A DNA stretch of 64,000 bases, taken from the NCBI GenBank assembly GCA_000004985.1, contig GG738845.1, one strand, 5' to 3'. Below, one piece after another: positions 1,159-59,916 of the stretch (its first letter is position 1; each line of letters starts with the position of its first letter). Both the position numbers and the translations under genes were made by a program. The notes below the pieces were generated by a model, which was not told the origin of the DNA, searched no databases, and saw only the letters and a program-made list of their open reading frames with translations. Source of the stretch: Naegleria gruberi. Taxonomy: Eukaryota.

Positions 1159-1518
1159 GTTTTGTTCCATCATTTAAGAAGTGATAATCATCACCACTAT
1201 ATTTATCATCAATGTAAACGAGGTAAAATATGTACAAAGACTTTCTCAAGCAAAAAGAAAACAAGAGTTTCTTGTTATCAGAATTGGGTTTAAAAACCCT
1301 TGTCAAAATATTTCGTTTATGCCTTCCTCATCCTTGATTCAATCCCTAGTACTTTAACTTAATTTATTATTACTCTTTATATATTATAATATTAATAAAT
1401 TTATTAATATTTGCTTTCAAAAAGCTCACATTTGCAGTATTCAAACATATTCAAATTTCGTTTTGATTTGAATTTATTGAAATCTAATATCGATTACCCT
1501 AAACTTGACCATAAAAAT

Positions 1519-1530
1519 TTTGGCGCCAAA
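1519..1530. promoter_or_regulatory. palindromic E2F-like element TTTGGCGCCAAA, about 35 bp upstream of the BUB1-like ATG
   Basis: Exact 12-bp palindrome. Matches the E2F/DP consensus TTTSSCGC on both strands. The same motif recurs upstream of other genes in this window. Confidence 0.4.
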
Positions 1531-1564
1531 AAAGTTGTTAAAATGAAAATTTAAAATAAAAAAA

Positions 1565-4099
1565 ATGAGTTCTCAACTGCACTTGAAACGTCAACAAAAA
1601 CAAATTCAAGATGCAATCGATAAATACTACTCTGGAATATCTAATGACAATGCTATGGATATAAAAAAGGATACACAATTATTATCTGGTCTTGTTGGAT
1701 ATCTTTCCGGATTTCAAGAGAGTGATTTGGCCTTTGAAACAAGAGGTGATGTCATTGAGAGATTTTTCGAAAAGTATTATAACAGTTTTATGAATGGTGG
1801 TAATTATCCACCTGAATTATATTCCGATAAAACAATTTGGGATTTGTGGCTTTTATATGCAGAGGCTCATACCAATGATCCTATTCCACACATTCAAACT
1901 CTACTTGAATTTGCTCCTAAATATCCAAAGTTATTTGAGGTCTGGGCCACTTGGTCGAGAAGAACAGGACGTATTGATGATGAATTAACAGCATATGAGG
2001 AGGCTGAAACGAGAGGTGTTGTATCCGAATTGTTATCGAGCATGAAACAAGACAGATCCGAATATTTCCAACCTCCACCATCACAACAACAAACAATTCC
2101 TGAACCTAAGATTAAAACCACCACCACCGTAACTAATACTGTAATCAAACAACCTGTTGCACATCAATCTGTGGAAACATTGGTTAACAATCCAAGACCA
2201 CCTTCACCAACCCCACAAAATTATTTGATTGGATATGACAAGAATCTAATCTTTACTCCAGGTGCAGAGTTTACTTTTGAGGAATTGAGAGCAATGCACT
2301 ATTTAAATACCACTGATTTAATGATTAATCACAAACAAACAATACCTAGTTCATCATCAATTTCACACAACCAATCTTTAATTGAACAACCTAAGCATCA
2401 TGATTCCTCTATTCTTATGAATAAGAATTTTGAAAAACCATCAAGCAAACCTCAACAAAAAGACGACGACTTTGAATTTGATTTTTCAAGTGATATTACC
2501 ACAGTACATGCAAGAAAATCAATGGCTGCAACTCCTACTTCTTACGCTCAACATACTATTGCCAGCTTTTTTGAGGGAACCATTGATACTGAAATTGAAA
2601 ACAATTACTTTGAACAACGAAAGTTCCGTAAAGTGCAAGAACAAGAGAAAAAGAGAAAACTTGATGAAATTTCACAATCAACAAATAATAATTTTGCCAT
2701 ACATGAAGATACAACAGCTGAAATTAAGAAATCTAGGCTGACAGCTCAACCATCCAGTAGTACCTTTAAAATACCATCTCAGACATCTTCTGGCTTTCAA
2801 AATACAAGTCTTCAACAAGAACGTTCATTCTCTCAAAGAAATAGATCCCTAAGTGCATTCCATCAGTTTAATGATACAGGAGATGAATCAGGTCTCTATT
2901 TTGGAGATGAATCTAACATTTCAAAAACTTTCATTGTTGATAGACAGCAAGAAAGTGCGATATCATTGGAAGGAATATCAGCCCTTATTTCAAAATACAC
3001 AAATAATGGAGTAATCAATCCGTACATGGAAGATATACGAAAAGTGTATACTAATATTGTTAACATAACTAATTGCTTTAAAGACAGTCGTATTACTGAC
3101 TGTAAAGGAGTTGAATCTATAGATTTAAAAACTATTCTGCTGGAGCTAAGTAAAAAGAAGAAAGGTATCGACTATAATACTCAAACATTAAGCTTGAAGT
3201 TGAGTACAAAGACATACCTTGCCGAAGAAGCACTATCTGAACATGTGATCAAAATACAGGATGTAAGAAGTAACAATGGAATTAATACCAAATCATTTGC
3301 CTTGAAATTTAAGCCACCAAATGATTTCTATGAGTACTATGTGATCGATCAGCTGTATAGAAGAATACCAGAGAAGGAAAATCATAGATTCCCAAATATT
3401 CAAAGAGTTTATGTTATGGATAATGATATTCTATTGATGGAAAACCTTGTAAATAACATTACTCTCACACAGGCAATATCACAAGCAAAAATTGAGGAAA
3501 CAATTGCTTTGTACTATACTTTAGAACTTCTCAATATTTTGCAAACTCTGCATAATAAGGCAAACATTACACACAATAATATTTCTCCATCTAATTTATT
3601 GCTTTTAAATGAAGATACTGATCTATCTGATTGGAGTATAGATGGAAAGGGTTGGAGTAATAAGGGTCTACTGCTCACCAACTTTTCCAGGTCTATTGAT
3701 TTAGAACTATTTCCAAACCGTGTTGTTTTCCAAAGTGAACCCAAAACATTACCAGAAGTTTTCAAATCATCAATACAATATCCAAACAAGTGGAAATATG
3801 CATCAGATACTTGGAGTGTTTGTAACATCATCCACCAAATGCTTTTTAAGAAGGACATGGAGGTAACAACGAACGCTCAAGACAAGTATCTAATTAAGGA
3901 ATCCATAAGGAGATTCTGGAAATTTAGAGATGTTTGGCAAACCATTTTCGATACTTTACTAAATCTTGACCAGACAAAGAGTCCAGATTATTACCAATTA
4001 ATAGAAATGTGTCAACAGGCGTTAGGAACAAATGGAGACACAGTTAAAGCTCTTTTCTTGAGATTCATTGTCTCACTTTCTACTCAATTAAAACACTAA
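1565..4099 (+). CDS. BUB1/MAD3 (BubR1)-like spindle-checkpoint protein with a degenerate C-terminal kinase domain
   Basis: The N-terminus carries the Mad3/BUB1 homology TPR-like region (IWDLWLLYAEAHTNDPIP...LFEVWATWSRRTGRIDDELTAYEEAETRG). The C-terminal kinase-like fold has HRD replaced by THNNISPSN and no canonical DFG (LTNFSRSIDL). KEN at EKENHRF. E2F-like site 35 bp upstream. Confidence 0.6.
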   Translation: MSSQLHLKRQQKQIQDAIDKYYSGISNDNAMDIKKDTQLLSGLVGYLSGFQESDLAFETRGDVIERFFEKYYNSFMNGGNYPPELYSDKTIWDLWLLYAEAHTNDPIPHIQTLLEFAPKYPKLFEVWATWSRRTGRIDDELTAYEEAETRGVVSELLSSMKQDRSEYFQPPPSQQQTIPEPKIKTTTTVTNTVIKQPVAHQSVETLVNNPRPPSPTPQNYLIGYDKNLIFTPGAEFTFEELRAMHYLNTTDLMINHKQTIPSSSSISHNQSLIEQPKHHDSSILMNKNFEKPSSKPQQKDDDFEFDFSSDITTVHARKSMAATPTSYAQHTIASFFEGTIDTEIENNYFEQRKFRKVQEQEKKRKLDEISQSTNNNFAIHEDTTAEIKKSRLTAQPSSSTFKIPSQTSSGFQNTSLQQERSFSQRNRSLSAFHQFNDTGDESGLYFGDESNISKTFIVDRQQESAISLEGISALISKYTNNGVINPYMEDIRKVYTNIVNITNCFKDSRITDCKGVESIDLKTILLELSKKKKGIDYNTQTLSLKLSTKTYLAEEALSEHVIKIQDVRSNNGINTKSFALKFKPPNDFYEYYVIDQLYRRIPEKENHRFPNIQRVYVMDNDILLMENLVNNITLTQAISQAKIEETIALYYTLELLNILQTLHNKANITHNNISPSNLLLLNEDTDLSDWSIDGKGWSNKGLLLTNFSRSIDLELFPNRVVFQSEPKTLPEVFKSSIQYPNKWKYASDTWSVCNIIHQMLFKKDMEVTTNAQDKYLIKESIRRFWKFRDVWQTIFDTLLNLDQTKSPDYYQLIEMCQQALGTNGDTVKALFLRFIVSLSTQLKH

Positions 4100-5702: not shown

Positions 5703-6545
5703 TTATACAAGTTTTGAAATGTTTTTGTGTAAATTGTCTTCCGAGAAGGATGAGATGAGAGAACAGTTGAATTCATCATAATTAATAACTCTATTTGTTT
5801 GGCCCATTAACATGAGCAAGTCGCCATTCCTTATAACACTCTCCTTAATGATGGTTTTTCCATCATAGTCATACTTAAGATTTGAATCATTACACAGTAC
5901 TTTCATATGATTGACTCGAGCAAAATCTTGAAGTGAATCAAGGAGAGGACTTAACTCTCTCGAATGTAGATAAAGAGTTCGTTCTCTTTGCAAGATGGTC
6001 AGTAATTCGTCCTTTTGGAGTGCTTTCAGTTCTCCACCATTGAGTAGACGATCCGATAGATCAATTTGTATCAGTTCTCGAGTGGAATTATCTCTCAAAT
6101 CTCTTTGGAAAATGAAATCCAATGGCTTTTTGAAAAGTAAATATTCCACCAATACTTGATTGGAAAACATGGATTCCTTCTCAACACGATAATGAAGAGC
6201 AACAATGTCTCTATCACTCCTACTACTTGTTGGTTGCTTCATTTCTTTCAAATTGGGAGCACAGAATTGTGGCTTTTCCAGTATGATATCATTATCTAAA
6301 CTTGATGTCTTGATGAATCCATATATCTTGGTCTTTCTTCCATCGAGTAAAAGCTCATCCCGTGGCAGCGTTTTATATTCATCCTTTATTTGAGTGAGAA
6401 GTTGATCTACATATCGTGATCGGAAGAGTGAAAAATTTCTTGTTGAGTTATGACGACCATGAAATATTATGGATGACGATGATGATCCATGTAAGATGTT
6501 GTATTTAATAATTAAATTGTTGCTTCCAGTTGTTAGTCTTTTCAT
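5703..6545 (-). CDS. hypothetical protein (280 aa)
   Basis: Long ATG ORF, Ser-rich N-terminus, no recognisable domain. Confidence 0.4.
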   Translation of the reverse strand: MKRLTTGSNNLIIKYNILHGSSSSSIIFHGRHNSTRNFSLFRSRYVDQLLTQIKDEYKTLPRDELLLDGRKTKIYGFIKTSSLDNDIILEKPQFCAPNLKEMKQPTSSRSDRDIVALHYRVEKESMFSNQVLVEYLLFKKPLDFIFQRDLRDNSTRELIQIDLSDRLLNGGELKALQKDELLTILQRERTLYLHSRELSPLLDSLQDFARVNHMKVLCNDSNLKYDYDGKTIIKESVIRNGDLLMLMGQTNRVINYDEFNCSLISSFSEDNLHKNISKLV

Positions 6546-6601: not shown

Positions 6602-6612
6602 TTGGCGCCAAA
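6602..6612. promoter_or_regulatory. E2F-like palindrome TTGGCGCCAAA in the divergent intergenic region
   Basis: Lies about 56 bp upstream of the minus-strand ATG at 6545 and about 155 bp upstream of the F-box gene ATG. Confidence 0.4.
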
Positions 6613-7911: not shown

Positions 7912-8047
7912 AACTTGGTTTGTTATTAAATAAACGTTTCAGAGATTTTCATTTCCCTTTTCTTCCATGTCACATTTTACTTCTTTCCCGCGTTAAAAAT
8001 CATCTCTCCTTTCTTTATAATAACATGCTTAGAGGTCATCAATAGAT

Positions 8048-8607: not shown

Positions 8608-10152
8608 ATGGCGACAAGGCAACCACAGCCCTCATCACATCAACCCCTGAATAATATTTCGCTGTCGTTTTTTGATATTTTGGCAGTTGTAGGTGTGATA
8701 TATATCGTGTTCCGAGTCTTACGTTGGTTATTGAAGAGTTACATCATGAGTGGCGTTGATAAAAAGTTAAATCACGACTCTTCTGTTCAGAAGAGAATGA
8801 TGAAGGAATATGCAAGTGGCGTGCTACCAACCTTGTCAAAATTTGAATTTATTACCACTGATGAGAATATTAGAGATGATGATGAAGATGCTCCTCTCTA
8901 TAAATTCCCTTTGAAAAAGATTGTTATTAGTGATCAATCTAAAATTGTTGATGGTATTGAAGTTGAGTACATGTGCAAGATGAGCGCACCAAATTTCAAG
9001 AGTGATGACGCAAGAAACTTTCACAATTACACTCCATCATGTAACATTTTCAATTCGCAATCAATTGAAAAAGACGAAAAATTGAGTAGTGTGGAGGAAA
9101 TTTATGTCTTTGTGCCTGGAAACCCTGGAAATTGCCTCATCTATCACGAGTTCTTGGAACGTTTATGTGAAAGATTAGACAATCAGGAAGAAGAAAAAAA
9201 CAGATTGGTAATTGCTGTTAGTTTGAGAGGTCATTCCTATTACTATCCTTCCCAATTTTGGCAAGGTTTGACCTTGTTTAAATCCAACTCTTCCTCCTCC
9301 TCATTATACCATTCGTTAGAGGCATACAATTTAAATGATCAGGTCGATTATTTTACATTAATTGTGCAAAAGTTGCATAGACAATTTCCAAATGCCAAAC
9401 TTATCTTACAGGGCCACTCCGTTGGGTGTTTTTTGATTTCCAAAGTTATGGAGCGATTGAATGTTTGCAAAAAGAAATCTCACCACCCAATAGTTCAGCC
9501 TCTTACACAAACAATTGTAGATAATGCAGTTGACAAATTAATATTCTTTTATCCGACTGTTCAAAACATGCACAGTGAAACTCCTAATGGACAATCTTTG
9601 CTTCAGTATGCAATCAAAGCTCCTCTTAGAGTTTATCTTGCCAATTTACTCTACAATTTAGCTTCACCAATTCTTCCAACATTTGTGATTAGATTGTCAA
9701 GAAGATCGTCACCAATTCTTGTTCCATGGATTCCTTACTATGTTGATAGTATGAGAATTATTAAGAATGTTACAACCTTAGCTAGTCATGAGTTTGAAGA
9801 AATTTTGGATTCTTTTGGAAATGATTCATCTCAAAATACTTTCAAAGATGCTATGAGAGATCACAAAGATAAGTTGAGGGTTATCTTCTCTACGGCTGAT
9901 CTTTGGGTTCCAAGAAAACACGTTCTCTCATTCTTAGATCATGTATTTGATGTAAACTCATATGAAGGAAAAACCATCCTTGAATTGGAAAACTCAACAG
10001 TTGTGGACGAACAAGAATTTTGTAAGATTCTTGACAAGGCATGTTTGAATGTTGGAATATCAAATCAAGTAACATTTAGCCACACAACGCAACATGCCTT
10101 TGTTATCCATCAAGATAATTTGGAAATCACTAGTAAATTGCCTCTAAGATAG
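8608..10152 (+). CDS. alpha/beta-hydrolase, lipid-droplet-associated hydrolase (LDAH/DUF2305)-like, with an N-terminal TM segment
   Basis: VFVPGNPGN motif and nucleophile elbow GHSVG (LILQGHSVGCFL), as in the LDAH family. N-terminal hydrophobic helix FFDILAVVGVIYIVFRVL. Confidence 0.5.
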   Translation: MATRQPQPSSHQPLNNISLSFFDILAVVGVIYIVFRVLRWLLKSYIMSGVDKKLNHDSSVQKRMMKEYASGVLPTLSKFEFITTDENIRDDDEDAPLYKFPLKKIVISDQSKIVDGIEVEYMCKMSAPNFKSDDARNFHNYTPSCNIFNSQSIEKDEKLSSVEEIYVFVPGNPGNCLIYHEFLERLCERLDNQEEEKNRLVIAVSLRGHSYYYPSQFWQGLTLFKSNSSSSSLYHSLEAYNLNDQVDYFTLIVQKLHRQFPNAKLILQGHSVGCFLISKVMERLNVCKKKSHHPIVQPLTQTIVDNAVDKLIFFYPTVQNMHSETPNGQSLLQYAIKAPLRVYLANLLYNLASPILPTFVIRLSRRSSPILVPWIPYYVDSMRIIKNVTTLASHEFEEILDSFGNDSSQNTFKDAMRDHKDKLRVIFSTADLWVPRKHVLSFLDHVFDVNSYEGKTILELENSTVVDEQEFCKILDKACLNVGISNQVTFSHTTQHAFVIHQDNLEITSKLPLR

Positions 10153-26054: not shown

Positions 26055-27626
26055 ATGCAAATCTTTTTTGATAACTACGAGCAGTTGGTAGAATTGTTTT
26101 CCCGCCATTTTAAAAAGTTAAATATAAAAAAAATGCCTCAACTTCAATTAAATGTGTTGTTCAGCAATGGAAAGGCAATTTGCTTTTTCCCAACCACATC
26201 ACTACAAACAAGAGAAGAGTTTGAATTGTTCTTGGAAAGAGAGTATGAAAAATTCTATCCTACCGATAGTGTTGCTATAAAAAATGTACAATATCTTTAT
26301 GTAGATAAGAACAATACTCCGATCAAGTTTGAATTGCCAACAAATTGGGATGATATCATTTCAAAGTCTCCAGCTAGGTCTAATATTGTAGAAATAATAT
26401 TTGGCAAAAATCCAATGATTTTTGTGGAATTGGACAATCAACCAAAGCAAAACATTCAATACGAAATTGTTTCACCAATACCAGCATCATCTAGAAAAAA
26501 GCAAGTAGAACGTTCTACTATCAGCAATGTAGCAACTTCACTTGAATTCTCTACAAGTAGTGCAACAAGTAATGATGATGAAAAAGTTGTAATATTTGAA
26601 GAGGATGACGATTCAATTTTTGATAAGTTTATTGAAACTAAAGAATTGGAAAAGAAACAAACTATTTCCCCAGAAATTCCACAATCATCAGCAGTTGTCG
26701 ATAAAAAAGAGAATGAAACACCAGCCACCACCACTACAATTACATCAAACCAAAATTCTCAACCAAGTCAAGATTCTCCAGAAATTGATTTTGATGAAGA
26801 TATTATCTTTTCAGACAATGAGGAACAACATGTGGAAAAACAACTCTTCCCTGAGGAATCTGCACAAAAGAGTCAAGAATCTGACTCTATGGTTATTGAC
26901 GACCTATCTCCTCTTATGGATGACATATTGAGCCAATCAAATGAAGAACCTGTAAAAATGACTGATGAGCTTAATGAAGCACTCTGTACACAAGCTGTAG
27001 ATACACTCCTCACTCGTGATGAATCATCTCAAAAAGAAGAGGTTACCAAGAAGGTTGACCAACCAGAACAATCAAAGCAAAGTCAACCTCTATCAACACC
27101 TCAAAAATCATCATCTCAACCAAAATCTTCACAAGAGAAGAAGGTGGCACCAGTTTTTACTCCAAAATCCTCACAAGAGAGGAAACAGGAACAAAAAGCT
27201 ACTCCAAAATCCTCAACACAAGAGAAGAAAGTAATTACAACACCAAAATCTTCACAAGAAAAGGTAACAACTCCAAAAGCCTCTCAAGAACAAAAAGCCT
27301 CACAAGAGAAGAAACAAATTACAACCCCAAAAGCATCTTCACAAGAAAAGGCAATAACACCAAAATCCTCACAAGAGAAGAAACCAGCAACAAATGAAAA
27401 TAACTCAACCAACAAGCCAGTCAAACAATTAACACCAAAAACTCCTATCTCAATATTATCAAAGGTGAAGAATTACAAAACACCTAACCCTTCACAAAAT
27501 CCTAGAGAGCAAGTTGCAGAAAAATCAAAGAGCACAACCAAAAAGAGGAAGAGAGATCAACTTTCTTCTATCATTGCTAAAAAGGCCATCGACTCATTGT
27601 CTTCCAGTAAGAAGAAAAATAAATAG
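26055..27626 (+). CDS. hypothetical nuclear(?) protein with a conserved N-terminal domain, an acidic middle and tandem TPKSSQEKK repeats
   Basis: Repeats of (T)PKSSQEKK(x) occur 8 or more times. C-terminal basic stretch KKRKRDQL. No family recognised. Confidence 0.5.
   Translation: MQIFFDNYEQLVELFSRHFKKLNIKKMPQLQLNVLFSNGKAICFFPTTSLQTREEFELFLEREYEKFYPTDSVAIKNVQYLYVDKNNTPIKFELPTNWDDIISKSPARSNIVEIIFGKNPMIFVELDNQPKQNIQYEIVSPIPASSRKKQVERSTISNVATSLEFSTSSATSNDDEKVVIFEEDDDSIFDKFIETKELEKKQTISPEIPQSSAVVDKKENETPATTTTITSNQNSQPSQDSPEIDFDEDIIFSDNEEQHVEKQLFPEESAQKSQESDSMVIDDLSPLMDDILSQSNEEPVKMTDELNEALCTQAVDTLLTRDESSQKEEVTKKVDQPEQSKQSQPLSTPQKSSSQPKSSQEKKVAPVFTPKSSQERKQEQKATPKSSTQEKKVITTPKSSQEKVTTPKASQEQKASQEKKQITTPKASSQEKAITPKSSQEKKPATNENNSTNKPVKQLTPKTPISILSKVKNYKTPNPSQNPREQVAEKSKSTTKKRKRDQLSSIIAKKAIDSLSSSKKKNK
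27100..27400 (+). repeat. in-frame tandem coding repeat (about 27-30 nt unit encoding TPKSSQEKK variants)
   Basis: The nucleotide unit ccaaaatcctcacaagagaagaaa is visibly repeated. Confidence 0.5.
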
Positions 27627-27833: not shown

Positions 27834-29349
27834 TTAATCATCTTCATAATCACTATCACTATCCTCAATAGCACTGGTTTTCTTCTTTTTGGTTGGTGGT
27901 TTTGTAGGTCTCTTCTTCTTTTGGTTGGGTGTAACTTGTTTCTTTTCAAAAACAACTTTTTCATCATCTTCAGGAAGTGAAGGGACTGTTGGTATGTAAA
28001 AATTTTCGTCTTGAAACGTGTTCATATCACTAGGTTTGGCAAAAATGTCTATTATTTGGGATTCGTCTTCTAAATTCGAAGGATACAGAGCTGTTTTGAA
28101 TTCATTTTCACAATCGTTATCGTATTCATTTTCTCTTTCAATATACATTTCATTACAATCTATTTCATCAAAATCTGGAGAGAATGCACTCCAATTTTCC
28201 ACAACGTGTTTAGTCCAAAATAAAATATTAGCTCCAATGGTTGCCGTTACAACAACAGGTCTTATATATTTGAAATTTTGAGGATGACACGTTAATGCAG
28301 TTATATTTTCATTATATGGACATTCTAGAATTTTTACAAGCTCACCATAAATAATATATTCATAAATTAGTACTTTGCTTCCATTAGTTGCTAATAAATA
28401 ACTTGAATCATTGTGTACTGTTGTAGAATTCAAGAAGGAGCAGAGTGTATAATTTTCATGCATAATTGCATTCTTAAACTCCTTAATTTTTGTAAAGTTC
28501 ACAAACTCTCCATTTCTTGTCTTTTCAAACTCGACTTTAAAAACATGAATGGCCATTCTAGTATTCACTGCAATATACCCACCATTCTTTGAAAATTCTA
28601 ACTGTACAATAAAGTAAAACTTATTAGTTACTACTTGCTTTGATTTCAAATCAATATTGACATCTTCGGAAATGTGAAATGGTGTATCAACTGGATGTGA
28701 TTGAAATGGAACAACTCTTAATGTTTCTGTATTTACAACTACTATTTGTCCAACAGTGTTTCCGATGAATATATATTTTCCACAAGGTGTGAAAAGTCCT
28801 CCGACACAATCCTTTCTCTTTACCTTGTATTCATGAAGTTTGATTGGAAGTTGTCTCCTCTCATCAGTTTGCCAATTTACAAGAAAAGGTGGATTATCAA
28901 CTGTGCAACAAAGTACTAAACTCCTATTAAAACACATTAAAAATTATTGTAGTACTAAATAATACCTACTCATTAGATGGACAAAGGTAGGTTCTTATCA
29001 GTGGAGTTGGCATTTCAATTTTCTTTATACATCTACGTTCAATTATATCACAAATAAAAACCTTTGTAGAACAAGCCACCAGAATATATCTATAATCTTT
29101 AAACCATTCTATTGCAGAAATGGGATAAGATTCAATCATTGTTATATGTGAAATTAGCGAGAGAGTATCATAGTCATACACTCGCAAGGCTCCATCAACA
29201 CATCCGATGGCAATTAAATTTCCTCTATGATTAAATTTTACAGCAGTTCCCATCTTTTCTGCCTCGCTAAGACTAAAACCCTCTCCCAAGTCTTCCGGAT
29301 AGGCATCAATTAGCTTATCCAGCGAGGAACCCATCATTAAAATATTCAT
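27834..29349 (-). CDS. RBBP5: RBBP5/Swd1-like WD40 subunit of the SET1/COMPASS H3K4 methyltransferase complex; 2 exons, about 46-nt intron near 28924..28969
   Basis: Exon 1 YPEDLGEGF...NLIAIGCVDGALRVYDYDTL...YILVACSTKVFICDI is collinear with human RBBP5 (YPEEADGTL...TLLAVGCNDGRIVIWDFLT). Exon 2 contains ILFWTKHVVENWSAFSPDFDEIDCNEMYIERENEYD, matching [36 protein letters not shown]. The splice GA|GTAGGT...TTTTAATAG|G restores the frame. The two track ORFs (28966..29349 and 27834..28937) are fused. Confidence 0.8.
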
Positions 29350-29384: not shown

Positions 29385-29399
29385 ATTTGGCGCCAAATT
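29385..29399. promoter_or_regulatory. E2F-like palindrome ATTTGGCGCCAAATT, about 36 bp upstream of the RBBP5 ATG
   Basis: Near-perfect 15-bp palindrome containing the TTTGGCGC core on both strands. Confidence 0.4.
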
Positions 29400-30377: not shown

Positions 30378-31031
30378 TTGAACATGTTTGCCTTAACTTC
30401 ATCACCAATACCAACTAGTAATGGAACGATCTCACACTTGGTTAACTTAACCAATGTAAAAACTTCCACTCATATATTATGTGTTCCTGACTATACGTCC
30501 TCATCAACCACTAGTCAAAACTCTGATGAGTATGTTTCAATTCTGAAAAGAAGTAACAACCGTACTCGTAAATCTCTCATTCTTGATGAAGATTCCACTT
30601 CAAGTTCCAATGAAGACGAAGGCAAGTCAAGAATGAGATCAGTAGACTTGAAAAACACGTTTACCACCTCACACCAATCTCAAATCATTCGGTGCAATAG
30701 AACAAGTGCCAATCAAAAGAGTTACATTTGCTATGATGATATTAAGAAGCATTTCTTTCTTCCAGAAGGAGAAGCTGCAAAACGTTTGGGGTGCTCCAAG
30801 AGTAAGCTCAAAAGAATCAAGACAAGACTCAATATTGAACGTTGGCCATACAGAAGAATCCAATCTCTGTTAAACCAAAAGTCAAGTTCCAACAAGGAAA
30901 ATTCAAGGTTGATTGACTTGGCTGTTGATTTTGTTTTGAATTATCCAAACTTAATTACCAAATATTCCAATGATGATATTTCTCTTATTGCCAAACGTTT
31001 TGATAGAGTCAAGATTAGTAACCTTTTGTAA
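30378..31031 (+). CDS. RWP-RK domain putative transcription factor
   Basis: C-terminal RWP-RK motif: ICYDDIKKHFFLPEGEAAKRLGCSKSKLKRIKTRLNIERWPYRRI. S/T-rich N-terminus. A roughly 1-kb GC-richer non-coding leader lies upstream. Confidence 0.65.
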   Translation: MNMFALTSSPIPTSNGTISHLVNLTNVKTSTHILCVPDYTSSSTTSQNSDEYVSILKRSNNRTRKSLILDEDSTSSSNEDEGKSRMRSVDLKNTFTTSHQSQIIRCNRTSANQKSYICYDDIKKHFFLPEGEAAKRLGCSKSKLKRIKTRLNIERWPYRRIQSLLNQKSSSNKENSRLIDLAVDFVLNYPNLITKYSNDDISLIAKRFDRVKISNLL

Positions 31032-43587: not shown

Positions 43588-43600
43588 AAATGGCGGCAAA
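43588..43600. promoter_or_regulatory. E2F-like half-site (AAAATGGCGGCAAAT) about 40 bp upstream of the probable start of the coiled-coil gene
   Basis: The position relative to the ATG matches the other instances. Confidence 0.25.
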
Positions 43601-45797: not shown

Positions 45798-48700
45798 ATG
45801 AGTCAACAACAAGATGCTCCACAAACTTCATCTCTTCCGAACACAACAACAACAGAGGCTGGAGCATCAACAACAACATCGGAACAACAAATCAACTCAA
45901 TAACATCAACACCAAATATATCATTTGAAAGTAATTTATTTGCTAATCTTCCGAATCATGATCCCACATTGAAACGTACATGTTGTTCTTTCAATGATAC
46001 TACAATTGCATTCGGTACGGAACAGGGGCATATTTACTTTCATGATAGATATACACTAGAATTAAAATTAACAATTACACATCAAGAGTTGGGTCAGAAG
46101 AGAAATTTTACTTTACCAATAACAAGAGTTTCTTTAACACCTAACTTGATCACCAATGATAAAAGGAGAGCTTTTATTGGAGCTGTAGATTCAGCATTTA
46201 TTGTATATATATTTGAAATTGAATTGACAGTCCAACAAATTGGAAATGCTAATGTTTGTTTTCCTAAAGTGGCCAGATTGCTAAACTCTCATTCACAACA
46301 CAAATTCGAAGTCACTTGTATTGCATGGGCTAATGATTTTCTCAAACTTTTTACTGGTGACACTTCAGGATTTGTTTTCGAGTTTAAAAATCAGAAAAAA
46401 TCACTCCTTTCTATTGGAAATTCTACACAAATTTTGAAAGAGGATGGTGCAGGAATTGTACAGCTATCTGTTTCTGGTGATCATTTACTCGTCTCTTCAA
46501 CAAAGCGTTCCATAGATGTTAATCTTTCAGCACAGCAGTATAAGGGTATTGGAACAAAACCAAGAGATGGTGTTTTTGGCGCATGCTTCCAATATGCTCT
46601 CAAAAAGAAAGAAGAAAACTCAGTTTCCACTCAAGATCAGTACACCATTTACGCATTTTCAGCCAGACCTGGAAGAAGAATTTGGTGTTCAGATATCACT
46701 ACTTGTAAGGTATTGTCAACCCTCAAATTTCCATCTGTGTCACAAGTCAAAGATCTCAAATTTACTCATCTTCTCAGTGTAGGTCCATATCTTGCCTCAT
46801 ACAATGAAGAAACAGTTACTATTTTGGATATTGTCAAATTGAAAATTTTGGATGTGAAATATGGAATAGGAACAATCAAACATGCATCTAGCTTTGGATT
46901 TTCCATGTTTATTGTACATGTTGATGAAAATTCCAATCATATTGTCAGTAGAATAGACTTACAACTTCCAGAAAATGAGAAACAATTCTTTATCAACCAA
47001 ATCCTACCAAAAGTTAGTAGACCAATTACAACCAATCCACAACAACCTGTGCAACCTCCACAACAGCCTCAACAAACTTCACAACCAGTCCAACAACCAG
47101 CACAGAAAAAGGACGAAAATCCACTTCAGCTCATTACTGGTTTGTTAAAAAGAAATGATACCCCTCCAGTGCCTCTTGTTAAAACTCCAAGTAATCCAAT
47201 TTTAATCAACTCTCAAAAAGAAACAGCCTCTTCTAGTGGTAATAGTACGCCAACAACCCCTGCCTCCATTTCTACCTCTTCTATACCTAAAGTTATTGCT
47301 ACAAGTAACAACACTCCAAAAGAAGAAAAGTTATTAGATTTTGAGAATGTAAAGATTGTTTCCACACCACCACCAAAATCTTCTTCCGCATTCTCTTTTT
47401 CATTACCTTCTGTTCAGCTCAAAGACAAATTTTCTGATTTGACAAGTGAAATGATGAAAAAAGCTGCAGCTGTTCTACCTAAACAAGATAAGGAACAACC
47501 AACAGCCAAACCACAAGAAGATATTAAGCCAACTGTAGAAGAGCCAAAACAACCCCAAAAAGATGAAAGTTGGTCTGCCCCAATGGTAGTCCAACCAAAG
47601 AAGATTAAAAAGAAGAAAAAGAAGCCTGAGCGACTCATTAGTTTTGATGGAAGTACCGCTGAACCAACACTCTTAATTGAAGAGAAGAAACCAAAAAAGA
47701 CCAGCTCTAAAAGAAGAACAAAATCTAAGGACTTTGATCAACTCTCACAAGTTTCAGATGATACCAGTAAAACTGGCTCCCTTGGATCAGATAATGAGGA
47801 TAGTGATAACACAGAAGATACTATTACAAGTTCTTCCAGCTTAGTTGATCCTTCACCAATTACTGAAAATTTACCAGCCATGGTTACTGAAGGTGACAAA
47901 TCACCTGGTACACCTTTAGAGAAGGAAGAACCTGTTCCTGAGCAAAAAACTGAACTTACAGAAAGTACTGAAGTTACTAACGTTGCACCAATTATTGAGG
48001 AAATCAAATCTAACGAAGAAATTCCTTATGATGACAACAGTAAGGATACTTCAGTAGCAATTCTTGAAATAATTGATACCGTAACAACAATAGAAGAAGA
48101 AACAATAGATCATATTCAACCTTCTGTTACTGACTCAATTCAAGTAATTGAGCCTGCGGAAAATGAACAAGAAATTCCAGTTGAGTCTGTAGTAAGTGGA
48201 GATGAATCAACAACAAAACAAGTCTCACCAGAAACTACAGAAGAAATTGAAACTATTTCTGAACAAGAAAAACAAGATTTGGAAAAGAAACAAGAGGAGG
48301 AGAGAAGAGAATTGCAACGTATCGAAGATGAAAACAAAAAAGCTGAACAAGAGAGAATTAGAATTGAGGAAGAAAAACTTAAAGAACAAGAAAGGATTGC
48401 AGAGGAAAAAAGAAAAGAAGAAGAACGACTTGCGGAAGAGAGAAGAAAAGAGCAAGAACGTACAGCAGAAGAAAAGAGAAAAAAGGAAGAGGAAGAAGAA
48501 AAGAGAATTGCAGAAGAGAGAAGAAAGAAGGAACTTGAAAGGCTCGAAGAAGAGAGGAAGAGAAAAGAGCAAGAGGAAAAACAAAGGCTCGAAGAGGAAA
48601 AAAGAAAGGAACAAGAAAGGCTTGAGGAAGAAAGAAAGAGAAAGGAACAGGAAAGAATTGAAGAAGAAAAAAGAAAGAGAGAAGAATTAATCAAAAAGAA

Positions 48701-58643: not shown

Positions 58644-58660
58644 AATTTGGCGCCAATTTT
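58644..58660. promoter_or_regulatory. E2F-like palindrome AATTTGGCGCCAATTTT, about 38 bp upstream of the RRP8 ATG
   Basis: TTGGCGCCAA core with flanking T/A runs, as at 1519 and 29385. Confidence 0.4.
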
Positions 58661-58697: not shown

Positions 58698-59735
58698 ATG
58701 CCACCACACCAAAAGATATTCAACAATAACAGCAAGAAGAGAAAACAAGCTGAGAAGAGAAAGGAAGAAACCGAAATATTTGAAGAGGAAGATGATGAAA
58801 TTGTCATCAAGAAAGTAGAAGATATTTCTATTGCCTCTCCGGATGCAAAGAAAAGAAAGGTTGATAGCAAACCAACAAAACAACAAACTCCAATCAAACA
58901 ACAACAACAGGCACCAACAACAACAAGTAAGAAACAAAACAAAACATCATCATCAACACAACAGGGTTCTTCTTCCTCTCAATTAACATCCCTCCAACAA
59001 GAATTCCAAGAGAAATTAAAATCATCTAAATTCCGTTTCTTGAATGAAAAACTTTACACCACAACAGGTCATCAAGCAAAATTGCTCTTTGAAAAGGATC
59101 CTTCTCTGTTCACTCTTTATCATGATGGATATAGACAATCAATGGAAAAGTGGCCATTCCAACCTGTTAAAAACATGATTAAATATTTAAATGGAAAACC
59201 ATTGAACTGGGTTGTTGCTGATATGGGTTGTGGAGAAGCTGAAATTGCCAAGAATGCAAAGCAAAAGACAATTCACTCTTTTGATTTAGTTGCTGCAAAT
59301 GATAAAGTTGTAGCTTGTGATATGAGAAAGACACCTCTCTCAGAGGAATGTGTTGATTGTGTCATCTTTTGTCTTTCATTGATGGGCACCAATTTTTATG
59401 ATTATTTGAGAGAATCATCGAGGATTTGTAAACAAGGAGGTTGTTTGAGAATTGCAGAATTGGAATCAAGATTTTTAACAGAGGAAACAAAGTCAAATAC
59501 TATGGAAGATGAAGTTCCATCAAAATCACCAAAGAAGAAGATTAACCCATTCGTAAAATTCGTTTCATGTGTTGAACATTTTGGATTTAAATTACAAAAA
59601 CAATCCACACCAAATGGATACTTTGTAATTTTTGAATTTGATAAGGTTAAGCCTTACTCTGAGGTAAAATCCCTCAAAGATCCAAACTTTACCAATCTTG
59701 ATGTCTTGAAGCCATGTATCTATAAGAGAAGATAA
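58698..59735 (+). CDS. RRP8: ribosomal RNA-processing protein 8 (Rossmann-fold rRNA methyltransferase RRP8/NML)
   Basis: [17 protein letters not shown]...[68 protein letters not shown] ... LKPCIYKRR is collinear with human RRP8 (...[39 protein letters not shown]...CLYKRR). Lys-rich N-terminal NoLS-like region. Confidence 0.85.
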   Translation: [345 protein letters not shown]

Positions 59736-59890: not shown

Positions 59891-59900
59891 TTGGCGCCAA
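59891..59900. promoter_or_regulatory. E2F-like palindrome TTGGCGCCAA immediately upstream of the zinc-finger gene
   Basis: It lies 17 bp upstream of the first in-frame start and about 56 bp upstream of the second Met. Confidence 0.4.
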
Positions 59901-59916
59901 AATTGTTACCGCCACT

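Follow-up and report, generated by a model that had tools for sequence, protein, structure and literature searches.

A predicted pseudokinase in the BUB-type MadBub protein of Naegleria gruberi

Introduction

The 64,000-nucleotide stretch of Naegleria gruberi DNA analysed here (contig GG738845.1; hereafter the window, AT-rich with a G+C content of ~33%) carries an intronless gene, NGRU_BUB, for a checkpoint protein of the MadBub family. The C-terminus of the protein holds a Bub1-type kinase fold in which key residues of catalysis have been replaced, and we predict that this domain is a pseudokinase. We read NGRU_BUB as a BUB-type MadBub paralogue acting as a non-catalytic kinetochore and checkpoint scaffold, and assign this reading a probability of roughly 0.7. 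The identity of the gene, its domain and motif content, the clade-wide loss of catalytic residues, the conservation of the dead domain and the conservation of an upstream palindrome come directly from our comparisons. The absence of activity, the scaffold role, all of the binding partners and the control by E2F are proposed from the sequence.

The gene and its frame are as follows.

1565..4099, plus strand: NGRU_BUB, intronless, BUB-type MadBub paralogue; single frame of 844 amino acids (aa), stop codon at 4097-4099

The product is 100% identical to an NCBI entry, ‘predicted protein [Naegleria gruberi]’. Tromer et al. (2016, Open Biol 6:160315, PMC5204127) list an identical sequence in their supplement as NGRU_BUB, and in Dataset EV1 of van Hooff et al. 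(2017, PMC5579357) it was entered as Naegleria_gruberi_NGRU005820_MadBub. Tromer et al. counted Naegleria as the sixteenth independent MadBub duplication (#16) and classed the gene as BUB (PMC5204127); the motif annotation in their supplementary files reads TPR/1-170, GLEBS/219-252, ABBA_other/374-385, CDII/484-500 and kinase/549-813. The gene and its family assignment are thus already published and are not new. An initial annotation of the window had recognised a BUB1/MAD3-like checkpoint protein in a lineage far from vertebrates, and both points hold: the protein belongs to the MadBub family, having a TPR-like region at its N-terminus and a kinase fold of the Bub1 type, and the organism belongs to the Heterolobosea.

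The kinase domain

The domain and the three loops that bear on catalysis were located as follows.

3209..4003, plus strand: Bub1-type kinase fold, predicted pseudokinase (aa 549-813)
3218..3247, plus strand: degenerate glycine-rich loop LAEEALSEHV with zero Gly, aligned to LGEGAFAQV
3572..3580, plus strand: H670-N671-N672 in place of the family H-G-D, with N672 at the catalytic-Asp position (human D917)
3680..3688, plus strand: N706-F707-S708 in place of D-F/L-G, with N706 at the Mg-binding Asp position (human D946)

Using phmmer against all PDB chains, the best match was the human BUB1 kinase domain (4qpm_A, E=2.3e-16, query residues 559-805). BUBR1 (E=2.3e-06) and generic kinases (E=0.007 or worse) were weaker. 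The initial annotation had recommended a comparison with the BUB1, BUBR1 and MAD3 families; in this search the match to BUB1 was much the better of the two. The Pfam Pkinase score was 29.5 bits, slightly under the 31.7-bit cut-off. With aa 470-844 as query, 1.84 billion representatives were searched exhaustively, yielding 470 proteins at E<=1e-10, and those of the matches from outside the clade that were inspected carried Bub1-type motifs.

The catalytic motifs were placed by three routes: pairwise HMMER alignment, MAFFT alignment with 20 MadBub kinase domains, and hmmalign to a hidden Markov model (HMM) built without Naegleria sequences. The placement was identical by all three. In the catalytic loop, N. 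gruberi I-T-H670-N671-N672-I-S-P-S-N677 aligns with human I-I-H-G-D917-I-K-P-D-N, so that the Lys of HGDxK is also replaced, by Ser. In the Mg loop, L-T-N706-F-S708 aligns with human L-I-D946-L-G. Neither the catalytic Asp (HRD; HGD in Bub1) nor the DFG Asp and Gly expected of an active kinase is present in N. gruberi, and its glycine-rich loop does not provide the GxGxxG of an active eukaryotic protein kinase. These alignments bear out the initial annotation in its claims that HRD is replaced by THNN, with the catalytic Asp changed to Asn, and that no DFG is present, the position reading NFS. It had also allowed that the catalytic Asp and DFG might be present but offset; none of the three alignments contains an offset Asp inside the catalytic loop or the Mg loop that could substitute, and the pseudokinase claim stands. 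From these replacements we infer that the kinase domain of NGRU_BUB is a pseudokinase, probably without catalytic activity.

Structure prediction of the C-terminal lobe, likewise recommended, was run with AlphaFold 2 (AF2). For the full-length protein (3 sequences) the mean predicted local distance difference test score (pLDDT) was 39 and the TPR region alone was usable; for aa 470-844 (5 sequences) the mean was 41. The pLDDT of the kinase region was 30-41 in the two models. We attribute these low values to alignments that held just 3-5 sequences. A Foldseek search with the aa 470-844 model ranked the human BUB1 kinase first, although the match is not significant (E=0.044, template modelling (TM) score 0.25). 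The AF2 confidence is too low for structural argument, and the pseudokinase prediction is therefore drawn from sequence.

The catalytic site in related amoebae

Orthologues were found in N. fowleri (P0002, 832 aa, 51-52% identity to NGRU_BUB), in a metagenome (P0003, from an ENA contig, 840 aa, 48%), in N. lovaniensis (P0158, 839 aa, plus a 210-aa fragment, P0005) and in Willaertia magna (P0006, 838 aa, 41%). When a 10-sequence Bub1 kinase alignment served as the homologue-search query, it matched one protein, the N. lovaniensis fragment. We note that P0158 (C9374_003353) and P0005 (C9374_003354), the latter a copy of the pseudokinase C-lobe, have neighbouring locus tags and were clustered together at 90% identity; the fragment is either a partial tandem duplicate or else an annotation or assembly artefact. 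The catalytic sites of the four relatives, and the tail that follows the kinase fold, are listed below.

N. fowleri: catalytic motif HNS, Mg loop DFS
N. lovaniensis: catalytic motif HNS, Mg loop DFS
P0003 (metagenome): catalytic motif HNS, Mg loop DYS
Willaertia magna: catalytic motif HTC, Mg loop DYS
4004..4096, plus strand: conserved C-terminal helical tail (aa 814-844), 74% identical in N. fowleri and 61% in P0003

The DFG Gly is absent from N. gruberi and from all four relatives, which also have no Gly residues in the glycine loop. The catalytic-base column reads N, S, S, S and C in the five sequences. Since the residue is other than Asp in both Naegleria and Willaertia, the catalytic base was lost before these two genera split. 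The drift of the residue between N, S and C is what would be expected if the position is no longer involved in chemistry. Taking the 150 best library representatives plus the mouse reference, this column holds Asp in 135/152 and the DFG Asp is present in 145/152.

Loss of catalytic residues has not been accompanied by decay of the domain. The kinase fold is 67% identical to NGRU_BUB in N. fowleri and 61% in P0003, and is among the best-conserved parts of the protein; the linkers are 15-25% identical in these orthologues. Conservation of the fold and tail far above that of the linkers argues that the domain is functional.

The same survey shows the catalytic Asp to be missing in 17/152 (e.g. 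P0013, P0016, P0061), and Clastostelium recurvatum has HGE at the catalytic motif. Other entries labelled ‘kinase’ in the motif files of Tromer et al. (PMC5204127) are also without the catalytic Asp, namely those of P. pallidum (HAN/GGF) and P. brassicae (HRA) and the SBAT entry (HAG). Loss of catalysis in the MadBub family may thus be commoner than is usually stated.

BUB or MAD paralogue

The initial annotation had described a BubR1-like pseudokinase with a KEN motif in the C-terminal half of the protein. The pseudokinase part of this description survives as a prediction, but the likeness to BubR1 does not. The KEN triplet is indeed present, at the following position.

3374..3382, plus strand: KEN triplet (aa 604-606, PEKENHRF), between alphaC and beta4 of the kinase N-lobe; judged non-functional

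From composition alone 0.28 KEN triplets are expected in the protein. The orthologues do not keep KEN604, having EADSH, MGESY or DVDAH in its place, and the triplet lies within the fold. We therefore rejected it as a degron and regard it as a chance occurrence. There is no KEN in aa 1-603, so NGRU_BUB has no N-terminal KEN1; with a single ABBA motif and no KEN2 it also lacks the ABBA1-KEN2-ABBA2 cassette.

These elements are found instead in a second gene, NGRU_MAD (NGRU008047), for which the motif listings of Tromer et al. (PMC5204127) give KEN1/74-99, TPR/236-382, ABBA1/477-488 and KEN2/513-543; the listings consulted contain no GLEBS or kinase entry for it. NGRU_MAD is 575 aa long and ends ...HFSIFVDEEFK, an ABBA-like second motif, so that a kinase domain would not fit. 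The window does not encode it (tblastn, best E=0.81). NGRU_BUB has a C-terminal Bub1-type kinase fold after CDII and no N-terminal KEN1, as expected of the BUB type. Because the KEN boxes sit in the separate NGRU_MAD, and GLEBS, ABBA_other, CDII and the kinase fold co-segregate with BUB, we assign NGRU_BUB to the BUB type and not to a BubR1-like one.

Tromer et al. (PMC5204127) and van Hooff et al. (PMC5579357) each list exactly two MadBub genes for N. gruberi. The second, catalytically intact BUB1 paralogue for which the initial annotation had suggested a search is absent from these surveys: neither of the two genes is intact, NGRU_MAD having no kinase domain at all. Taking the published surveys at face value, N. 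gruberi appears to be without a catalytically competent Bub1-family member. The same data of van Hooff et al. (PMC5579357) hold N. gruberi entries for Bub3, Knl1, Mad1, Mad2, Mps1, Cdc20 (3), Aurora (2) and INCENP, as well as Borealin, Survivin, Dsn1, Spc25 and Zwint-1. Their Sgo, Ndc80, Nuf2, Spc24 and Mis12 files have no N. gruberi entry. That no shugoshin is listed fits a loss of the Bub1-H2A-shugoshin branch.

The N-terminal domain and linear motifs

Outside the kinase fold, the following features were located.

1565..2074, plus strand: divergent MadBub-type TPR domain (aa 1-170), from hhalign and from AF2 with Foldseek
2219..2320, plus strand: GLEBS (predicted Bub3-binding) motif (aa 219-252), NYLIGYDKNLIFTPGAEFTFEELRAMHYLNTTDL
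2510..2662, plus strand: clade-conserved block (aa 316-366), ATPTSYA..TI..FF.G.ID.E.ENNYFEQRK.RK...KKRK, matching no annotated MadBub motif
2684..2719, plus strand: predicted ABBA-type Cdc20-binding motif (aa 374-385), NNNFAIHEDTTA
2843..2899, plus strand: second clade-conserved block (aa 427-445), RSLSAFHQFNDTGDESGLY, with the pattern RSLSAFHQFND..DES
3014..3064, plus strand: CDII motif (aa 484-500), INPYMEDIRKVYTNIVN, opening the N-terminal extension that is specific to Bub1 and packs on the kinase N-lobe

The TPR homology region proposed by the initial annotation is present, but is far weaker in sequence than that description implied. Pfam Mad3_BUB1_I gave no match in NGRU_BUB, even at E<=1. 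We built a MadBub TPR HMM from the 32 TPR domains of the Tromer 2016 file, with 900 shuffled sequences as control. The N. gruberi domain scored 6.8 bits, within the range of the shuffled controls (maximum 7.5); the N. fowleri orthologue (16.4 bits) and P0003 (10.5 bits) both exceeded all shuffles. Comparison of the orthologue profile with the MadBub TPR profile by hhalign gave a probability of 93% (E=3e-7), in register, and paired YSDKTIWDLWLLYAEAHTNDP with the family YrnDpRYLrlWi.YAd...dP. Searching the PDB with a 3-sequence N-terminal orthologue profile retrieved only generic or designed PPR/TPR proteins, via one hairpin, and was uninformative on family.

The AF2 model is confident for residues 5-167 only, where it is all helical with a pLDDT of ~70-83. 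The top Foldseek matches of this part among 350,542 PDB chains were the BubR1 TPR (3si5_A, E=2e-4, TM score 0.66 on the target; 2wvi), the Mps1 TPR and the Bub1 TPR (4a1g). Taken together, the evidence for an N-terminal TPR domain of the Mad3_BUB1_I type is weak but consistent.

The GLEBS motif matches canonical instances, e.g. that of NVEC, ...YAGATEFSFEELRSA. It contains ...GAEFTFEELRAMHY (canonical GAEFTFEELRA), a core kept in the four full-length orthologues. The core of the ABBA motif, FAIHED, fits the regular expression Fx[ILV][FHY]x[DE], and its equivalents are FSIHED in Willaertia and FQIPED in P0003. The region that contains CDII (483-548) is 61% identical in N. fowleri and 53% in P0003.

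The first of the two clade-conserved blocks, 316-366, is 71% identical in N. fowleri and 69% in P0003 and is kept in Willaertia; the basic KKRK at its end may be a nuclear localisation signal. By eye this block resembles a short CMI (TPT...FF against SPT...MF), but the candidate was rejected when a CMI HMM gave nothing above shuffled controls. In the second block, S430, A431, F432, H433, F435 and N436 are invariant across the four orthologues. The motif file of Tromer et al. (PMC5204127) carries no annotation for it.

The upstream palindrome

The initial annotation had placed an E2F-like palindrome 35 bp upstream of the gene. It was found at the following position, 34 nucleotides (nt) before the ATG; the other matches to the E2F-type consensus TTTSSCGC are listed with it.

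1518..1531, strand not applicable: perfect palindrome TTTTGGCGCCAAAA, two overlapping E2F-type sites, TTTGGCGC on each strand
TTTSSCGC positions in the window: 1519-1530, 6605-6612, 7984-7991, 26098-26105, 29386-29397, 43593-43600, 46575-46582, 58646-58653 and 59894-59901

The 12-nt core (1519-1530) is the TTTSSCGC double site TTTGGCGCCAAA, and the gap of 34 nt is measured from this core. Its position is conserved. The 14.5-kb N. fowleri locus has only two TTTSSCGC matches, which together make up this palindrome, 33 nt upstream of the orthologue's ATG; the distance is therefore kept within ~1 nt, and the surrounding intergenic DNA is otherwise different. At the locus of the metagenomic orthologue (L002), E2F-like half-sites CCCGCCAAAAA and TTCCCGCCCAAA lie ~35-60 nt upstream.

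The window contains 11 TTTSSCGC matches against 0.93 expected (12-fold), and no shuffle exceeded 3. The palindrome TTTGGCGCCAAA recurs in perfect form at 29386-29397. Single sites occur ~60 nt upstream of the ATG at 6545 (a minus-strand open reading frame, ORF) and ~45 nt upstream of the ATG at 58698 (a Methyltransf_8 ORF). These occurrences suggest that TTTSSCGC is a common proximal promoter element in Naegleria. For the ORFs adjoining the other E2F-like sites, Pfam gave no cell-cycle annotation.

Proteins of the E2F, DP and Rb families have been reported in Excavata (PMC4862756). As in the E2F/DP-regulated cell-cycle promoters of animals and plants, a TTTSSCGC site, here a palindromic double site, adjoins the start of a mitotic checkpoint gene. 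The Naegleria element differs from those promoters in being known from its DNA sequence, with the presence of E2F/DP taken from the Excavata survey. That the palindrome would serve as a cell-cycle promoter element is a reasonable reading of its consensus match and conserved position.

Neighbouring genes

The N. fowleri BUB orthologue (L001) is flanked by genes for SIR2 and acyl-CoA oxidase upstream and a C2-domain protein downstream. Flanking ORFs have no obvious match between N. gruberi and N. fowleri, and local synteny around BUB may be lost. In the window, Pfam-matched ORFs at 30378-31031 (plus strand), 8608-10152 (plus strand) and 27834-28937 (minus strand) are unrelated to the BUB finding. 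Matches among the neighbouring ORFs include an RWP-RK domain protein (E=2e-18) and a lipid-droplet-associated hydrolase (E=1e-31); a match to an EML-type beta-propeller is weak and far under the Pfam cut-off.

A proposed non-catalytic scaffold and its alternatives

In the model that we favour, the GLEBS motif of NGRU_BUB would bind Bub3, which in turn would dock on Mps1-phosphorylated KNL1. The ABBA motif would present a contact for Cdc20, and the divergent TPR domain and the clade-specific blocks may supply further contacts. The Bub1-type kinase fold with its CDII extension would have been retained as a structural or allosteric module after phosphate transfer was lost, and KEN-dependent effector functions would be carried by the separate NGRU_MAD. 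Transcription is probably cell-cycle regulated via the putative E2F/DP site ~35 nt upstream of the ATG. In other organisms the checkpoint can largely do without Bub1 kinase activity (bioRxiv 10.1101/2024.01.04.574194).

Several observations pull in the other direction. On the scaffold side, the CMI/CD1 Mad1-binding motif was undetectable in the four orthologues with an HMM of 42 CMI instances, which gave nothing above shuffled controls, and one core Bub1 scaffold function is therefore without a visible sequence basis. The CMI is also not annotated for NGRU_BUB in the motif files of Tromer et al. (PMC5204127). Its absence does not exclude BUB membership, because some accepted BUB paralogues are also without it. 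An equivalent of the ABBA motif is missing in N. fowleri. The apparent lack of any other Bub1 kinase and of shugoshin is taken from published surveys, and shugoshin is short and hard to detect. Binding of E2F at the palindrome is proposed from the match to the consensus. On the catalytic side, NGRU_BUB retains the beta3 Lys (K581 in ALKFK, aligned to human K821), the alphaC Glu (E590 in YEYY, aligned to human E830) and the catalytic-loop Asn (N677). The DFG Asp is present in all four relatives, N. gruberi alone having Asn, and the kinase region is of low confidence in both AF2 models. Given K581, E590, N677 and the DFG Asp of the relatives, ATP binding or weak atypical activity may persist. 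HER3 also has Asn at the catalytic-Asp position and is weakly active.

Such persistence is the alternative that survives best. NGRU_BUB would then be an active atypical kinase, using ATP through K581, E590 and N677 by a non-canonical mechanism, and Bub1-type phosphorylation (e.g. of H2A) would continue. To the retained residues just named can be added the alphaF Asp, which is also kept, and the strong constraint on the domain; WNK, CASK and HER3 are kinases without canonical residues that are nevertheless active. Against this, a set of catalytic elements has gone together (Gly loop, catalytic base, catalytic-loop Lys, DFG Gly), in N. gruberi along with the DFG Asp, and variation of the catalytic base between N, S and C among close relatives is unexpected if catalysis is maintained. 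The main Bub1 mark is read by shugoshin, which is not listed for N. gruberi. KKT14, which is comparably degenerate (HGN in T. brucei), shows no autophosphorylation (bioRxiv 10.1101/2024.01.04.574194). We consider an active kinase improbable.

A second possibility is that the pseudokinase-bearing paralogue acts as a BubR1/Mad3-like effector, inhibiting APC/C-Cdc20 via KEN within the mitotic checkpoint complex. A degenerate kinase domain, as in vertebrate BubR1, together with one KEN triplet and one ABBA motif, would fit such a role. It is difficult to reconcile with the lack of an N-terminal KEN and of the ABBA1-KEN2-ABBA2 cassette, with a KEN604 that is unconserved, at chance level and inside the folded N-lobe, and with the presence of KEN1, KEN2 and flanking ABBA motifs in NGRU_MAD. 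The gene is classed as BUB by Tromer et al. (PMC5204127), and the match to BUB1 in the PDB (E=2e-16) is far better than that to BUBR1 (E=2e-06). This role for NGRU_BUB is very doubtful.

It is scarcely credible that the kinase region lacks a function of its own, as a remnant in decay or an artefact of the gene model: the sub-threshold Pfam Pkinase score and the low-confidence AF2 models would suit this view, but the frame is open and uninterrupted over 844 aa, orthologues of equal length and the same architecture exist in N. fowleri, N. lovaniensis, the metagenome and Willaertia, the fold and tail are among the best-conserved parts with structural kinase residues kept, and the low pLDDT is explained by the 3-5-sequence alignments.

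Comparison with known systems

Bub1 (human BUB1, S. cerevisiae Bub1) shares with NGRU_BUB the order TPR, GLEBS, ABBA, CDII and kinase fold, and the lack of an N-terminal KEN1. NGRU_BUB differs in its catalytic elements, with substitutions at the catalytic Asp, at both the Asp and the Gly of DFG, in the Gly loop and at the catalytic-loop Lys; in addition, CMI/CD1 is undetectable and the TPR is too divergent for Pfam. BUB1 orthologues have been described as retaining an active kinase (bioRxiv 10.1101/733378).

Vertebrate BubR1 is likewise a MadBub protein that has kept a C-terminal kinase fold without catalytic competence, presumably for stability or allostery. Unlike NGRU_BUB, it bears both KEN1 and the ABBA-KEN2-ABBA cassette and is found alongside an active BUB1. 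In our alignment the motifs of mouse BubR1 are still HGD and DFS, whereas the catalytic Asp of NGRU_BUB is gone. In Naegleria the KEN boxes are in another gene, and no active partner kinase is known from the surveys.

The kinetoplastid protein KKT14 (bioRxiv 10.1101/2024.01.04.574194) is closer in lineage, both organisms belonging to Discoba. It too has a Bub1-like fold with an N-terminal extension, degenerate motifs and an ABBA motif; it pairs with a Bub3-like protein and is the organism's only Bub1-like kinase fold. KKT14 is, in contrast, without the beta3 Lys and without a recognisable TPR or CDI, and ordinary sequence searches miss its kinship with Bub1. NGRU_BUB is readily recognisable and keeps K581, E590, the TPR and a canonical GLEBS. 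A stability, allosteric or binding role for a retained dead fold has been argued for BubR1 (bioRxiv 10.1101/733378) and suggested for KKT14 (bioRxiv 10.1101/2024.01.04.574194).

Pseudokinases are thus already a known kind in this family, and the novelty of the present case is modest. In the motif files of Tromer et al. (PMC5204127) the NGRU_BUB domain is labelled ‘kinase’, the label ‘pseudo_kinase’ appearing there on vertebrate MAD entries. We found no statement in the searchable literature that the Naegleria BUB kinase is degenerate or a pseudokinase, and the pseudokinase state of this known gene is apparently unreported.

Implications

The gene was known before; what the finding contributes is a re-annotation and a prediction that can be tested. 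In the published account of MadBub evolution, one copy keeps the KEN boxes after duplication and the other keeps the active kinase, with BubR1 as an odd pseudokinase (PMC5204127; bioRxiv 10.1101/733378). Naegleria would be an exception to this pattern: the kinase-bearing copy would be dead and no active copy left, with the fold still strongly conserved. The conserved-position palindrome provides a small, concrete handle on cell-cycle transcription in Heterolobosea.

More tentatively, the vahlkampfiid amoebae (Naegleria, Willaertia) could be without any active Bub1-family kinase and without shugoshin, the fold being kept for an essential non-catalytic role; on present evidence we advance this as a possibility and do not yet lean towards it. 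If it were true, the route from Bub1 through H2A phosphate and shugoshin to the chromosomal passenger complex at the centromere would be absent, its place taken by something else, in the closed ‘promitosis’ of these organisms. Together with KKT14, inactivation of the Bub1 kinase would then be a recurrent, or possibly ancient, trait of Discoba. This raises the question of how the chromosomal passenger complex is placed and cohesion protected, in a free-living eukaryote whose mitosis is closed, without the Bub1-H2A-shugoshin pathway. NGRU_BUB would also be a natural experiment on what the Bub1 kinase domain does independently of catalysis.

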